Shown piece after piece: positions 8,234 through 63,184 of a DNA stretch of 64,000 bases (positions are counted from its first letter, which is position 1; the number at the start of each line of letters is the position of its first letter). The notes under the pieces were generated by a model, which did not search any database, was not told where the DNA came from, and saw only the letters and a program-made list of their open reading frames with translations. Location: positions 18,476,001 through 18,540,000 of the forward strand of contig OX597838.1 in the NCBI GenBank assembly GCA_951406725.2, given 5' to 3'. Source of the DNA: Octopus vulgaris (lineage: Eukaryota). The position numbers and the translations under genes were made by a program.

Positions 8234-9162
8234 TAATAACACCACTGAGTAGAGGAGTCCTCGATGAGAATTGACCTGGGGCTAAACACAAGCGACAAGA
8301 ACAGTAACACGCGGTCGGACGTCAGAATAAGAGGAACAAAGGCCAACAACAGCAGCACCAGTACGGTCGACAACCACGCCAACAGCGGCAACTCATCGCC
8401 ACAAAGTCCCCACACATAACACACACACACACAAATATACAGCACACACGCATATACATGCACACGATCACACACACACACACACATATATATTACTATC
8501 GGCAATTACCAACCGACAAGCATCAGCACCTCAACCACCACCACCACCACCACCACCATCACAGTCGCCACCGCCGCCACCGATGCGACCATCAACAAAA
8601 GCAGAAAGCCACACTGCAGTAGGATCTTGCCAACAAGTCAGCTGTTTCCTATATTATCAAACTCCATATTGCAATGAAAACGCGCCATCTTTAAACATGC
8701 TTGGCAGTTTTAGAAAACAGCAGCAATACAATAAAAAATAAAAAATAAAAAAAATAAAAAACTTTATTCAATGTTGCTATAGCAACCATTGCTACACTTC
8801 CAGATTTTCTCTCCTTTTCTGCTCTAAGAACAGACATTGCTTCACACAACCAAATGGGATTAATGATATACATGCATACATACATACGTACGTACATACA
8901 TGCACACATACATATACATACATATACACATACATACATAAATACATACATATGTATGTTTATATATATATATATATATATGCTTTATAAGTTATAATTG
9001 AAATTCAACATTATAATGTACGTACCGCTAAATTGAAGACGCATTTGAATTATGCTGCATGGGCAACATGTATAAAATAATATTTCGCAGATATAGAATA
9101 TATTTATTGAATTATATACATACATATATACATATATAAATATATGTATTATATATAAATAT

Positions 9163-9513
9163 ATGCCAAGGATTCCAACATCACCATCAAAATACAGGTC
9201 CAGATACTGCAACAGCTTGGGTTTCAGAGGACCACAGCTCTTTAACATCCTCCCTAAATGCCTGAGAGACTTACATGGTGTGGATGTGGGTTTCTTTAAA
9301 ACTAAACTGGATCTCTACTTGTCGGGAGTCCCAGATGAACCTACCTCACGACAGGAGACACAGATGCGGGCAGCAGCATCGAACTCCCTTGTTGAACAAG
9401 TGCCACGTACCAGAGGTGGATTCACAAATTAGTGTAGCTCATTCAGCGGTGGTGCCCCAGCATGGCCGCGGCCTTCGGACTAAAACATTTTTAAGGATTT
9501 AAGAATTTTAAGG

Positions 9514-9942: not shown

Positions 9943-10655
9943 TAGTTTTATTTTTATAGCGTGCTTTCACTTCACTATCGAGCGCAGCTCTGTGTGCCTT
10001 GGGTATGTGCTGTGATTTGTTGTGATGCTCTGATGGTTATTGTATGGAAAGTGTTCTGCGTAGGATGTGTGCAGTGCCTAGTAGTGCAATTTTCTGTATG
10101 TTATATGTGTTTGTAAGTCCTGGTGTTTTTGTTATGTATTTGTCTGAATATTTTTTTATCATGCCTAATGCACCTACTATGATAGGAATTGTTTCTGTTT
10201 TCAGATTCCACATTCTTGTTACCTCTATTTCCAGGTCTTTGTATTTTGAGAGTTTCTCCACTTCTTTTAGAGACACGTTGTCATCAGCCGGTATTGATAC
10301 ATCAATTAGAAAGCATTTTTTTCTTCATGATCTCTGACAACTATATCTGGTCTGTTGGCCTTAATTTCTCTATCTGTGTGTATCGGCATATCCCAGAGTA
10401 TGGTTGCTTTCTCGTTTTCTGTGACCTTTTCTGGTGTGTGCCTATACCATCTTTTTTCTGTTGTTATTCCATAATGTTGGCAGTTACTTGTAATATTTCT
10501 TTTCATAACATGTTTTTGGTAATTTCTGGTGGGGAGGCTTTGGTCTTGTGCTGCAATTAAAAATCCCTCTGTTTCTGCTTTGAGTCCTGAGCTTCTCAAC
10601 CATTGCTGGGATTTTTTTTTTGTCTATTTCTTTTGCGTTTAGTTTAGTCCAGTAT
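9940..10655 (-). mobile_element. 5'-truncated R4/Dong-like LINE with restriction-like endonuclease domain, frameshifted
   Basis: ETEGFLIAAQDQSL, ILWDMPIHTD..ANRPDIVV, EKLSKYKDL, PIIVGALG, QKIALLGTAHILR; (ATT)n on both sides. Confidence 0.85.
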
Positions 10656-15694: not shown

Positions 15695-15734
15695 GCGGTC
15701 TGAAGAACGGGAACGTGAAACTCTGAGTAACAGC
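15695..15734 (+). ncRNA. Minimal type I hammerhead, family G, canonical core
   Basis: GCGGU-CUGAAGA-ACG(GGAA)CGU-GAA-ACUCUGAGU-A/ACAGC. Confidence 0.75.
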
Positions 15735-15915: not shown

Positions 15916-16267
15916 AATCACTCCTGTCACAACCTGGGACGTTGAGGACTGCTTTAATGCAACAAAGTATATTAGTACCTTAATATTTGATATTCAATAT
16001 TTCATCTATTCAATAAGACAATCAATACTTCATTTCAGTATACTACACTATATATACTATATATTCTATATTCTACATTAATATTATAAAGAATATAAAT
16101 AAAACATCAAAAACAGAGTTGGATTTTCTTTGAATAATATATATCCCTCTATACACAATCATACAAACACATTTATATATATATATAGTCAGACGCCATG
16201 ATAGATCCTTAGCTACTACACACATTTTTTTCTCTCCTTGTTTCTCTCCTTGTTTTCTTTCTGTGTA

Positions 16268-16305
16268 TCTTTCTGTAGAAGAGCGTAGGCTCGAAACGTA
16301 AAATA
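16268..16305 (+). ncRNA. Hammerhead-like motif, family B (A6U core)
   Basis: UUU-CUGUAGA-A-GAGC(GUAG)GCUC-GAAAC-GUA/AAA in element 16190-16398. Confidence 0.55.
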
Positions 16306-16393
16306 CTTTTTCTATTCCTGAGCGCAATAACAATACATCTGTTTGTTTGTACACCACCTGCCTTCGTCTTTTGTTTATTTTAATAAACTTTCC

Positions 16394-16512
<119 letters not shown>

Positions 16513-30355: not shown

Positions 30356-30408
<53 letters not shown>

Positions 30409-30504
30409 CGGGAAGTTTTACGAAAATAAACAAAAGACGAAGGCAGGTGGAGTACAAACAAACAATTGTATTAGTATGGCGCTCAGGAATAGAAATAGAA
30501 CAAG

Positions 30505-30542
30505 TCTTTTACGTTTCGAGCCTACGCTCTTCGACAGAAAGA
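30505..30542 (-). ncRNA. Hammerhead-like motif, family B
   Basis: UCUUU-CUGUCGA-A-GAGC(GUAG)GCUC-GAAAC-GUA/AAAGA. Confidence 0.6.
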
Positions 30543-30674
30543 TACACAGAAAAGAAACACGGAGAGAAACAAGGAGAGAAAAAAATGCGTGCAGGAGCTA
30601 ACGATTCAACATGGCGGTCTGATTTCGGCCACAAGTCAGAGATCAGACATATATATATATATCGGTATGTATAA

Positions 30675-31295
30675 AGAGGGTGCGGTGAATAAACTGTCAT
30701 CTAAATTACGCAAAAATAAAAATAACTCTGAGATCTCATTTCTACAGTCATATTTACCAAAATTACATCAAAATATCTTGAAATACTAAACAGTAAATTT
30801 CTACATTAAAATCGCCATTAGCTTGAACCACGGCCTCCAGATAACTTCGGAATCTCCTGCAACTCTTCTGGACAGTCTCCTTGTTTAAGTTGGTGAATGC
30901 TGCCATAATCCTTGCCTTCACTTCTTCTTTGGTGTTACAAGGTGCTGTGTTGGTCTCCGGTCAACTGCACCCCACACATAATAATGAAGGGGGTTGCAGT
31001 CTAGGGAGGTAGGTGGCCAAATGTTAGGGGGGATGTGGTCAGAAATTTTCTGACAGCCATGACTGTGTTCTCCTGCTTGTAGTGGCATGGTGCTGAGTCC
31101 TGTTACCAGATATAGGGTCCTCCAGCAGCCACCCTCTTGACCCAGGGCAGCAGTACCTGCACCAGGGACTTGATATAGGATTCCGTATTGAGGCCGCGTT
31201 GGAAGATGAATAGAGGTATAACATCGCCATCACTAGTGATCACTCCAAACATCATGATGTTGACTGGATGCTAAATTTTTATCACTCTCGGTACA
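30675..31295 (-). mobile_element. Tc1/mariner (probably DD37D/maT-like) transposase 3' half, pseudogenised
   Basis: MFGVITSDGDV...PYIW*QDSAP...NIWPPTSLDCNPLHYYVWG...CRRFRSYLEAVVQANGDF. Confidence 0.75.
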
Positions 31296-32370: not shown

Positions 32371-32429
32371 TACTTTTTTCTATCTATTTTACCTTTTTCT
32401 ATTTTCTGTCCCTGTTTATTTTTGTGTTC

Positions 32430-32465
32430 CTTTCTGTCGAAGAGCGTAGGCTCGAAACGTAAAAG
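32430..32465 (+). ncRNA. Hammerhead-like motif, family B
   Basis: CUUU-CUGUCGA-A-GAGC(GUAG)GCUC-GAAAC-GUA/AAAG. Confidence 0.6.
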
Positions 32466-32580
32466 ACTGTCTCACTTCCCGAGCATTAAACTAATACATC
32501 TGTTTGTTGTTTACCCATCCGTCTTTGTCTTTTGATTTTTTTTGTAAATTCTCACTATAGTATTCTAGATAGATATATAA

Positions 32581-33896: not shown

Positions 33897-33974
33897 GTGT
33901 GTGTATGTGTTCACCATGATAGATCACTAGCCACTAAACCTTTTTTATTTTCTCTCCCTGCTTATTTCTCTGTC

Positions 33975-34011
33975 CTTTCCTGTCGAAGAGCGTAGGCTCG
34001 AAATGTAAAAG
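33975..34011 (+). ncRNA. Hammerhead-like motif, family B (GAAAU)
   Basis: CUGUCGA-A-GAGC(GUAG)GCUC-GAAAU-GUA/AAAG. Confidence 0.5.
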
Positions 34012-34111
34012 ACTTTCTCACTTCCCGAGCGTTAAACCAATGCATCTGTTTGTTGTTTACCCACCCGTCTTCGTATTTTGTGTTTTTTTTTTGTAAATTC
34101 TCACTATATAC

Positions 34112-40832: not shown

Positions 40833-41171
40833 CGGTTAATAGTGCAAACCCCAATGCCGTTATTGATCTGATTAACGAATGTCGAAATATTGACTTCCTT
40901 TATGCAATAAATATAAATTTTATGAGATAAATAAAATATTTAAGCGATAAACATATATTTATGACATCTAGGTATTGATTGATCTTTTCATTAATATATA
41001 AAGTATGTATCGTATATGTTCATGTATATGTGTATGTGTGTGTGTATCTGTGTTTGAGTGTTTATAAAGTATACGTATGAATATATATCTATATACACAG
41101 ACATATATATGCCGTTAGCTACTACACACATTTTTTTCTCTCCTTGTTTCTCTCGTTTTTTTTTCTGTGTA

Positions 41172-41209
41172 TCTTTCTGTAGAAGAGCGTAGGCTCGAAA
41201 CGTAAAAGA
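41172..41209 (+). ncRNA. Hammerhead-like motif, family B
   Basis: UCUUU-CUGUAGA-A-GAGC(GUAG)GCUC-GAAAC-GUA/AAAGA. Confidence 0.6.
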
Positions 41210-41316
41210 CTTTTTCTATTCCTGAGCGCTATACTTATACATCTGTTTGTTTGTACACCACCTGCCTTCGTCTTTTGTTTATTTTCGTAAACTTTCCCTC
41301 TATATTTATATATATA

Positions 41317-45323: not shown

Positions 45324-45679
45324 CAAATGATAAATACAAGTTGTATGTCATGAGGGAGACTTTACGACGCCACCAGACTTGAGAATCGATGGAAAAAACG
45401 AAACAATATTTGTCTATACAAAACAATGTAACGTTATACTCCATTATCTGTACTGTATATTCCATAACGTTTAAACGACGCTAAATAAATAAGCATTTGG
45501 TTTGCGACTAAATGTACAACACCCAAAAGGGGTGATCGATTTCTTAAGTTGGGGGTAACGTTTCTTTCAAATAAAACAAAATAAATGTTAGTTTCCAGAC
45601 TTTTATGAAATTATTCATCGAATTACAGTATGGGTTATTAGGTTGTGAAAAAGTCATAACCTTAGTCTGTGTATGAGTC

Positions 45680-46416
45680 GAACTTATCTCGAAGTACCTT
45701 GACCGTGTCTTCACCTACGTAGTGGCTTCTCTCCCCTCACACATTCACGGCACCAACCATATTCTTCGTTTATTTAATTCTTTCTCCTTCCCTCCTGGCC
45801 TTTCGCAACTCCAGTTCACTCCGGATATCAAATCTTTATACAAAGTGATCACGCATAACGAAGATCATCTTGCTTTCAAGCACTGTCTAAATCTTCGTCC
45901 AGACTCTCAGCCCAACACCGCCATCCTTCTTTGTTTGGCTGAACTCGTCCTCTCCCCAACTGCTCCTTGTTTGCAAGTTTCGTCGGCTATATTGAGTGCC
46001 AAATATTCTTACAGTTCACTGGTCCTACTCCAGAGCTATATGGTCATTATATCGACGATTCTATCGGTGTGAACTCCTCACTCTCCCACAAAAATCATGA
46101 CTCTTTCCTCACCTTCCATCCTGCTCCCGACTTCTTCTGCATAATCTCTAACTCCGCTGAATTTCTCGGAATTTCATTTAGTGTACACCACTCCATTCTT
46201 ACTATCTCCATCACACAGATTCACACCTCTATCTCAACTATTTCTCCTAACACCCTACCCACACCAAAATCTCCATCCCCTTCTTCCAGTTCCTCCGTCT
46301 ACGCCGGCTCTGCAGAGATTCAGAGACTCAGTCTCGCCTCATGGCTCGCCACTTCACCCTACGTGGATATCTCTTCGCCATTATCCAAACTGCACAATCC
46401 ATTGAGCGTGCCTCTG

Positions 46417-46475
<59 letters not shown>

Positions 46476-46820
46476 CGCACTCGCCGCTCACTTATTCGCC
46501 TTCCTTTACCCCTCACCCTACCTCTCCAACGTACCATTCTCTGAGTTTTACGTCGACTCAAGTCCGATCCCTTCCACCTCCCACATCTTCTCTAACCGAC
46601 CCCTTCATCCTTCAAATGCGCCCATAATCTGCGTGACCATTTGGTCTGTAGTTTCTTCCCGATTTCTGCTACTCAACCTGGTTCAATCCTTTGCTCTCGC
46701 CCGCGCTGTCGCACCTGCCCCTATCTCCCCAACACCCATTATCCGCGGCAGTACCCATCACACACCGCCTATCACATCACCGACCCCTTTACCTGCACAC
46801 ACATTAGCATCCAATACCTT
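45680..46820 (+). pseudogene. Penelope-like element reverse transcriptase plus Cys-rich linker (Neptune-like), frameshifted
   Basis: ELISKYLD, DIKSLY, LAELVL, YIDD, HFTLRGY, NLRDHLV, CSRPRCRTCPY, FTCT motifs across several frames. Confidence 0.85.
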
Positions 46821-46824
46821 CTAA

Positions 46825-46915
46825 CCCCTAACTCTCGTCACCCCTAACTCCCGTCACCCCTAACTCCCGTCACCCCTAACTCCCGTCACCCCTAACTCCC
46901 GTCACCCCTAACTCA
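46825..46915 (+). repeat. 16 bp minisatellite (CCCCTAACTCCCGTCA), about 5.5 copies
   Basis: Direct reading. Confidence 0.95.
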
Positions 46916-51714: not shown

Positions 51715-52420
51715 ACAGGTGAAATTTATAGAAAATCCCAAAACAAAAGAACGTCAAGGAACAACAAGCAGATGTATTAGTTTAACGCTCAAGCCTACTC
51801 TCTTCAATAGAAAGGAATAAGAGAAAATAAACCGAGAGAAAATTTAAATAATAAATTGTAGATTTAGCGTTAAGTATGGCGAATGATTAGTAAAAAATGT
51901 TTGAAAGAAGAGGTTGAAAGAAAGGGAGATAATAAAGTGCTAGTGATCGCAAATAAAGCTGCGCCTGTGTATGTGTGTGAATGTCTGTGTGTGTGTGTGT
52001 GTGTGTGTTTGAAAATGGTGTGTGTGAATGTGTGTGTGAATAGGGGCTAGTGACTTTGACGTGTGTGTGTGTGTGCGTGTAAGTGTGTGCATCTGTAATG
52101 TGTGGCTGCTCGTATAGTGGTATGCGTGGTGACGCTATTGAAGATTGTGTGTGGGTGTGTGGATGATGGTGTGTGATGTGGGTACTGGAAAGTGGTCAGT
52201 GCTAGTGTGTGTGGAGTGTGTAATTTTGTGTTGGGTGTGTGGTGTGTGTGTGCATGGGGTGGGGTGCTGGCGGCATCAATGAATAGAGGAGGTAAGTAGG
52301 AGAGAAGACAGCAAGTAGGTGTCAGATGAAGAGAGGGGGAGTTGAGCCGACGTGGAGCAAAGAAGCGAAAAAGAAGATTAATTCCTGTTCACGGTGAAGT
52401 CGGGCGTCCGAATGACCCCA
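51715..52420 (-). mobile_element. PLE 3' end: GIY-YIG C-terminus, microsatellite-rich UTR and family B terminal segment
   Basis: GHSDARLHREQELIF...APRRLN at 52420-52325; family B sequence with internal deletion at 51715-51840. Confidence 0.65.
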
Positions 52421-53230: not shown

Positions 53231-53265
53231 GTTTCCGACGAAGAGCTCCGCTCGAAACGTTAAAC
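53231..53265 (+). ncRNA. Minimal type I hammerhead, family C (U4C core)
   Basis: GUUU-CCGACGA-A-GAGC(UCC)GCUC-GAAAC-GUU/AAAC. Confidence 0.65.
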
Positions 53266-62860: not shown

Positions 62861-63049
62861 GTACAGGACGTCACCAACAGTAAACAACATGAAATACGAA
62901 AATAAGCGAATTAGATATGCAAACAACGAGAGAGAAAAATTGAAAACAGGACAAGTCACACAAGCAACGACTTTTCATCAGTTGTCGTCTGTCTATCTAT
63001 TCCTCATTTCGAGCAATCACCAATTATCTCCTTGTTTCTTTCTGTGTTC

Positions 63050-63085
63050 CTTTCTGTGGAAGAGCGTAGGCTCGAAACGTTAAAG
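63050..63085 (+). ncRNA. Hammerhead-like motif, family B
   Basis: CUUU-CUGUGGA-A-GAGC(GUAG)GCUC-GAAAC-GUU/AAAG. Confidence 0.6.
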
Positions 63086-63184
63086 ACTTCTTCACTACCC
63101 GAGCGTTAAACTAATACATCTGTTTGTTCTCTAAACCACCCTTTCTTCTTTTGTTCTTTTTTGTAAATTCTCTCCATATATATG

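Follow-up and report, generated by a model that had tools for sequence, protein, structure and literature searches.

Hammerhead motifs with U in place of the normally invariant A6 are fixed in a very recently active family of Penelope-like retrotransposons of Octopus vulgaris, and six of them lie in the window, the 64,000-nucleotide stretch of contig OX597838.1 that was analysed. Each is of the minimal type I class and sits at the 3' end of a copy of a Neptune-type element that has lost its 5' part. From the variation among genomic copies we infer that the hammerhead pattern stayed under selection after the A6U change. The explanation that we favour, and to which we give an even chance, is a ribozyme that is constrained, attenuated and probably assisted by a protein or by dimer formation, its A6 having been changed to U in active Neptune-type master elements.

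Motif copies in the window and their host element

Copy 1 (16268..16305, +) had C3 at 16273, U6 at 16276, A at N7, helix II at 16281-16292 and A at H17 (16300). Copies 2 (30505..30542, -; C3 30537), 3 (32430..32465, +; C3 32434) and 4 (33975..34011, +; C3 33980; two decayed positions) all carried C at N7 and A at H17. In copy 5 (41172..41209, +; C3 41177, U6 41180) both N7 and H17 (41204) were A, and in copy 6 (63050..63085, +; C3 63054) they were G and U. The preliminary description, which had reported six copies at these places with U6 in all six, N7 as A, C, C, C, A and G, H17 as A in five and U in one, and an invariant helix II, was borne out in each respect, and the loop of helix II was identical as well. 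A seventh, decayed copy (51720..51837, -) had lost the 3' half of its core by deletion. The 19-nt stretch from G8 to A15.1 had six exact matches in the window, compared with 0.00 expected from 100 shuffles. Each window motif contained an extra A between A9 and G10.1, and a 4-nt palindrome took the place of a true helix III, which was absent. Copy 1 had a mismatch in helix I; copy 4 had a helix I mismatch and a CpG change inside the palindrome. No Rfam hammerhead family was found on copy 5 at E values up to 10, as expected of a motif without helix III, and the whole-window Rfam scan gave only microsatellite-driven microRNA matches among the matches listed (150 of 339). At 15700(+), 62489(-) and 27266(+) there were also hammerhead-like motifs that combined the canonical CUGANGA core with a longer helix III region; the first two were alike.

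The 5'-truncated Penelope-like 3' end around copy 1 spanned 16188..16396 (+; 5' limit approximate) and was flanked by (TA)n runs; that around copy 2, also truncated, spanned 30408..30649 (-; 5' limit approximate). Copies 3 to 6 sat in element ends at ~32381-32555, ~33914-34104, ~41111-41300 and ~63023-63176, all on the + strand. The 16-mer of helix II occurred exactly 24,016 times in the 2.8-Gb genome. Genomic copies ended at a common 3' point, followed by (TA)n, but differed in their 5' ends, and the longest extended to the GIY-YIG C-terminus and reverse transcriptase (RT). When the genome was searched with the family protein, 114 of 24,043 candidates were scored, many of them equally, with open frames of up to 1,214 codons, and 12 long-frame loci were retrieved for full-element analysis. 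The motif flanked the ORF on both sides in nine of the 12, about 4.5 kb apart, and lay ~790 nt upstream of the start codon; one locus (L105) held three motifs in tandem. The ORFs of 11 loci were 99.2-99.7% identical to that of the twelfth, indicating that the family was active very recently. A non-LTR retrozyme was ruled out, the copies being dispersed truncated ends or 4.5-kb coding units.

The single ORF held an RT domain (PF00078, E 1.4e-7, above cut-off) and a GIY-YIG domain (PF01541, E 0.0066, below the curated cut-off) preceded by a CX4CXXC linker. A Pfam search with the C-terminal 366 aa alone and a PDB sequence search gave no match. With a single ORF for RT and C-terminal GIY-YIG, partial-tandem repeats and 5' truncation, the element corresponds to EN+ Penelope-like elements; the linker and a microsatellite insertion bias, with 3' ends that run into (TA)n, fit the Neptune clade, a probable assignment drawn from these two features, and Nematis has the same linker. 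In loci L098-L109 the ORF had no stop right after GIY-YIG and continued for 100-200 codons of a Ser/Pro/Leu low-complexity tail, the length and frame of which differed among near-identical copies. Directly before the 5' terminal repeat of the full-length copy in locus L102, an inverted duplication of flanking DNA was observed (2470-2625). The window also contained a broken RT-to-linker remnant of a related Penelope-like element (45677..46826, +; 47-65% amino-acid identity to the family protein), which was frameshifted and ended in a short tandem repeat; no hammerhead was seen 3' of it. ORF fragments at 10026-10623(-), 9097-9432(+) and 30918-31229(-) resembled remnants of other retroelements or transposases.

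Fixation of U6 and variation of the core

Genome-wide, 19,249 cores carried U6 and 267 carried A6. Among the 30 best protein matches, all 27 motif-bearing loci had U6 (three loci had no motif within reach), and so did all 22 same-strand motifs of the 12 long-ORF loci, including both terminal repeats. Decay as the source of U6 was rejected, since intact, young master elements carry it. By hand count, N7 among the matches listed (first 100 U6 rows) was U in 39, A in 23, C in 22 and G in 16. H17 was U in 5,021 cores genome-wide compared with G in 132, and G17 was seen only as scattered decay.

So that the motif itself played no part in the sampling, copies were chosen by an anchor 3' of the motif (the first 90 of 16,110 places, from the first 15 Mb of contig C1); these gave 89 distinct copies and, with eight truncated or gapped copies left out, 81 full motifs. 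U6 was present in 77 of the 81. N7 was A in 22, C in 20, U in 24 and G in 15, and H17 was A in 69, U in 9, G in 2 and C in 1, that is, not G in 79/81. C3, A13 and A14 were each retained in 81/81 copies, G8 in 78/81, G12 in 77/81, A15.1 in 79/81 and U16.1 in 80/81, and the extra nucleotide 9a was A in 80/81. The type I core (C3 U4 G5 A6 N7 G8 A9 / G12 A13 A14) was complete except for A6, and A15.1-U16.1 and the NUH cleavage triplet were present. Departures at the other non-CpG core positions amounted to 0-6% and at CpG positions to up to 12%. A second allele at a frequency of at least 10% was found in 2/22 non-CpG core columns, namely N7 and H17, compared with 21/59 downstream columns (Fisher p 0.025); upstream, 11/20 columns had one. 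When N7 and H17 were set aside, 0/20 core columns were polymorphic (p 0.0009 against downstream). N7 and H17 varied far more than the other core positions among genomic copies, rather than to the same extent. CpG mutation behind the N7 variation was rejected because all four letters mark subfamilies. No compensating base-pair change was found in helix II within the family.

The proposal of a constrained ribozyme with an unusual core was upheld in part: core and flank columns differed as constraint requires, but loop 2 and the extra A, both nominally free, were invariant as well, which speaks against a purely catalytic reading. The constraint could not be demonstrated from the six window copies alone, because they come from different subfamilies, and it acts on master elements, not on dead copies. 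Only 8-9 unpaired core columns carry a signal specific to catalysis, and alone they were marginal (p ~0.04-0.06 at the flank rate, by arithmetic). The same pattern appeared in contigs from four public runs (two labelled organism A, one B and one C), in which depth is not copy number. No difference was listed at 2% for C3-U6 or G8-G10.3 in these contigs; U made up 30-42% and C 17-23% of depth at N7 (G7, though common, being omitted from the table), and U made up 20-25% of depth at H17.

Of 177 motifs collected, 128 entered a tree for which positions 6, 7 and 17 were masked and in which A6 rows were overrepresented. The tree took the form of a ladder in which five canonical CUGAUGA copies stood beside the outgroup, followed by nested U6 groups (SH-aLRT 97, 99, 93, 92, 96 and 98; 92 of 125 inner branches open). 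Many A6 rows were point revertants nested among U6 rows, and three U6 rows lay in the basal polytomy, which leaves the origin of U6 approximate. Eight subfamilies were defined by their flanks in a set of 100 rows (63 of 163 rows, unassigned, were dropped; the basal subfamily has 4 rows). Across them N7 changed about four times while U6 was kept, and after U6 no core column except N7 and H17 changed. Counted along this ladder, changes numbered 0/26 compared with 27/91, a result that is partly circular, subfamilies being defined by flank letters; the second-allele comparison in the 81 copies was made to avoid this circularity. H17=U accompanied U or G at N7, implying two origins, and U7 was lost and then regained along the subfamilies.

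A sister hammerhead family in the same genome, with CCGACGA as its U4C core and a loop 2 of 3 nt, occurred in the window at 53235(+) and 1729(-) and had 9,310 exact genome copies. The U4C change has a precedent in a viroid (PMC3088659). The U6 family and its U4C sister show that this clade tolerated core changes more than once.

Predicted effect of U6 and the explanations weighed

The numbering of hammerhead positions and the parts assigned to G8 and G12 follow bioRxiv 2026.07.22.740005, PMC6765202 and PMC6155905, as well as common usage in the field. Published rates were low for related core changes. The natural A6C hammerhead cleaved at <0.1 per min (PMC3088659); in 0.3 mM Mg2+ another hammerhead cleaved at 0.3 per min and, once given A6C, at 3.55e-6 per min, whereas with this change it kept 0.18 per min in Mn2+ (PMC7151607). 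Natural A6C and U4C hammerheads retain low activity (PMC3088659, PMC7151607), single CUGA changes gave low activity in a mutant scan (PMC9901934), and minimal hammerheads are slow even with a canonical core (PMC4209133). Neither a natural A6U hammerhead nor an A6U cleavage rate was found in the literature searched; for natural variants the search ended short of the main survey of Penelope-associated hammerheads (Lunse et al., PMC5785218), which may include such cases, and of position 6 in the inactive variants of Fig. S7 of PMC3088659.

In predicted folds, helix I (4-5 bp) and helix II (4 bp) formed, and folding z-scores were unremarkable (-0.5 to 0.8). According to the folding model, U6 can pair with A15.1, which would close U4-G5-U6 onto the palindrome and give an inactive rod. 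For the G5-C15.2 pair the model gave mean probabilities of 0.46-0.97 when the U6 copies came from the four youngest subfamilies and 0.0-0.4 when they came from older ones; three natural A6 classes, each of 1-2 copies, had 0.05-0.15. The active dimer of U6 copies was predicted to be 1.7-6.9 kcal/mol less stable than two folded monomers; it would lie 6-7 kcal/mol above them for U6/U7, ~2 for A6/U7 and 1.7 for U6 with A7 or C7. In a short construct the predicted rod effect was weak when N7 was G and small when it was A or C, so the brake is predicted mainly for U6/U7. The idea that U4C strengthens the same rod pairing was rejected, the folded pairing probability being 0.00-0.01. About 20 nt 3' of the cut site (41224-41228, +, and equivalents), in this family as in the U4C sister, five conserved nucleotides repeat the 5' strand of helix II; they can pair with its 3' strand in predicted folds and may give a second inactive conformation.

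Genomic copies ended 98 nt 3' of the cut site; a full-length copy has, at this same distance, a run of AU that corresponds to the (TA)n target. Reverse transcription therefore likely starts ~98 nt 3' of the cut site, so that templates would have to be uncut at their 3' motif. Of 11 long copies, none began at the 5' cut site and 8 reached at least 386 nt upstream of it. At (TA)n 5' junctions, 7/37 fitted the cut site and 8/37 a control TA in loop 2 (hand count; 37 distinct loci of one subfamily among the matches listed, the first 100 of 409); as the cut site itself forms a TA, this is a weak test. A slow ribozyme and a dead but selected fold would look alike in these DNA data.

Such a fold is possible, if somewhat doubtful: the motif would be catalytically dead, with its sequence or fold kept for the element protein, a host factor or a terminal-repeat DNA promoter. 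Genomic DNA without a trace of cutting in 5' junctions or long copies, and a loop 2 and helix II that are invariant without covariation, agree with this. So does the youngest subfamily, which adds U17 and a U7 predicted to strengthen the rod (pairing probability 0.95), and the abundance of U4C in its 9,310 copies suggests relaxed catalysis in the clade. Further, catalytic mutants of the anole element PAc had no effect on insertion in vitro (PMC11167929), and Naiad elements thrive without hammerheads (PMC8557442). However, variation falls on just those two columns that catalysis by a hammerhead does not fix: N7 takes all four letters and H17 avoids G at the subfamily level. In addition, insertion still takes place with PAc RNA trimmed past the core, evidence against the fold as an RT binding site (PMC11167929). 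That the motif is instead an unselected relic, killed by A6U in one master too recently for further changes to be fixed, is hardly tenable. Subfamily copies are just 2-10% from their majority and the motif has only 28 nt, as this would need; yet about one third of the downstream and half of the upstream columns became polymorphic compared with none of the 20 other core columns, and N7 alone changed about four times. The comparison of core and flank polymorphism thus largely refutes the relic.

Full compensation of U6, through extension of helix I past a 2-nt bulge, the invariant loop 2, a protein or Mn2+, with near-canonical Penelope-like cutting as the outcome, is very unlikely. U6 persisted through several subfamily turnovers, Mn2+ rescues A6C, and the G at -8 in U6 subfamilies, compared with A in the basal one (4 rows), could add a helix I pair. 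However, the extension lacks covariation support, folding predictions are less favourable to the active form in U6/U7 copies, and efficient cutting would destroy the RT template. A more far-reaching and rather unlikely reading is that A6U evolved as a brake, with weak catalysis and the rod lock sparing the RT template until a dimer, the protein or Mn2+ enabled cutting; the loss and regain of U7 mean that the rod may be a side effect. If such a brake did evolve, the successive subfamilies would record, in 19,000 fossil copies, how the rate of a ribozyme was tuned in nature.

Master elements carry U in place of A6, and the core positions other than N7 and H17 do not change at the subfamily level; according to the attenuated-ribozyme model that we favour, the need for an uncut template at the start of reverse transcription would have let a weaker core be tolerated or even favoured. 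U6 is predicted to weaken the active site, and its pairing with A15.1 may hold a single motif in the inactive rod, most strongly in the youngest subfamily. Cutting would then be late or rare and would set in once the 4-nt palindrome joins two motifs of a tandem transcript; refolding of the RNA by the element protein may be an alternative or added trigger, and late cutting would trim read-through transcripts.

Comparison with known systems

Hammerheads of Penelope-like elements are conserved, cut slowly and are not required for insertion in vitro (PMC11167929, PMC4209133). The octopus family is a natural experiment on their role, with an active element, A6 and U6 siblings one letter apart and a subfamily ladder. 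If U6 cuts, the core consensus is looser than search descriptors assume, and in this genome such descriptors overlook tens of thousands of motifs; if U6 does not cut, the hammerhead core must be conserved for another reason.

Element type and motif type are already known. Neptune elements (PMC8557442) share with the octopus element an RT followed by a C-terminal GIY-YIG, the CX4CXXC linker, a (TA)n insertion bias and a partial-tandem structure; unlike theirs, the octopus ORF has no stop just after the endonuclease and continues into the low-complexity tail. The motif has the extra 9a, the palindromic 15.1-16.1 and the presence in both pseudo-LTRs that define Penelope-like min-HHRs. The min-HHRs of Cervera and de la Pena 2014 (PMC4209133) and the octopus motif agree in occupying both terminal repeats, in the extra nucleotide between 9 and 10.1, in G10.1-C11.1, the palindromic 15.2-16.2 and the missing helix III, in a helix I of 4-5 bp with a U-rich 5' flank, and in occurring mostly as dispersed single truncated copies. 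However, A6 was found in 56/56 rows of Fig. S3 of that paper whereas the octopus family has U6; the core variant described there is U3-A8, and its descriptor would miss the U6 family.

In the phage Bcep176 A6C hammerhead (PMC3088659, PMC7151607), the same core position is substituted and the remaining core is intact. Its activity is low but measurable; it is a single phage motif with C6, whereas U6 is fixed in a retrotransposon lineage with ~19,000 copies. Further, C6 cannot pair with A15.1 and U6 can.

The PAc element of the anole belongs to the Poseidon clade, and its hammerhead cuts only with the element protein, is dispensable for insertion in vitro and leaves no read ending at the cut site (PMC11167929), a picture with which the octopus 5' ends agree. 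Reverse transcription starts 3' of the cut site in both elements, at 85-92 nt in PAc (numbering of PMC11167929) and at a probable 98 nt in the octopus family; uncut RNA is the template in PAc (PMC11167929) and presumably in the octopus family, and targets are AT-rich in both. The PAc motif overlaps the ORF start, whereas the octopus motif precedes its start codon by the ~790 nt given above, and, unlike in PAc, the AU run of the octopus template matches the (TA)n target at the probable start.
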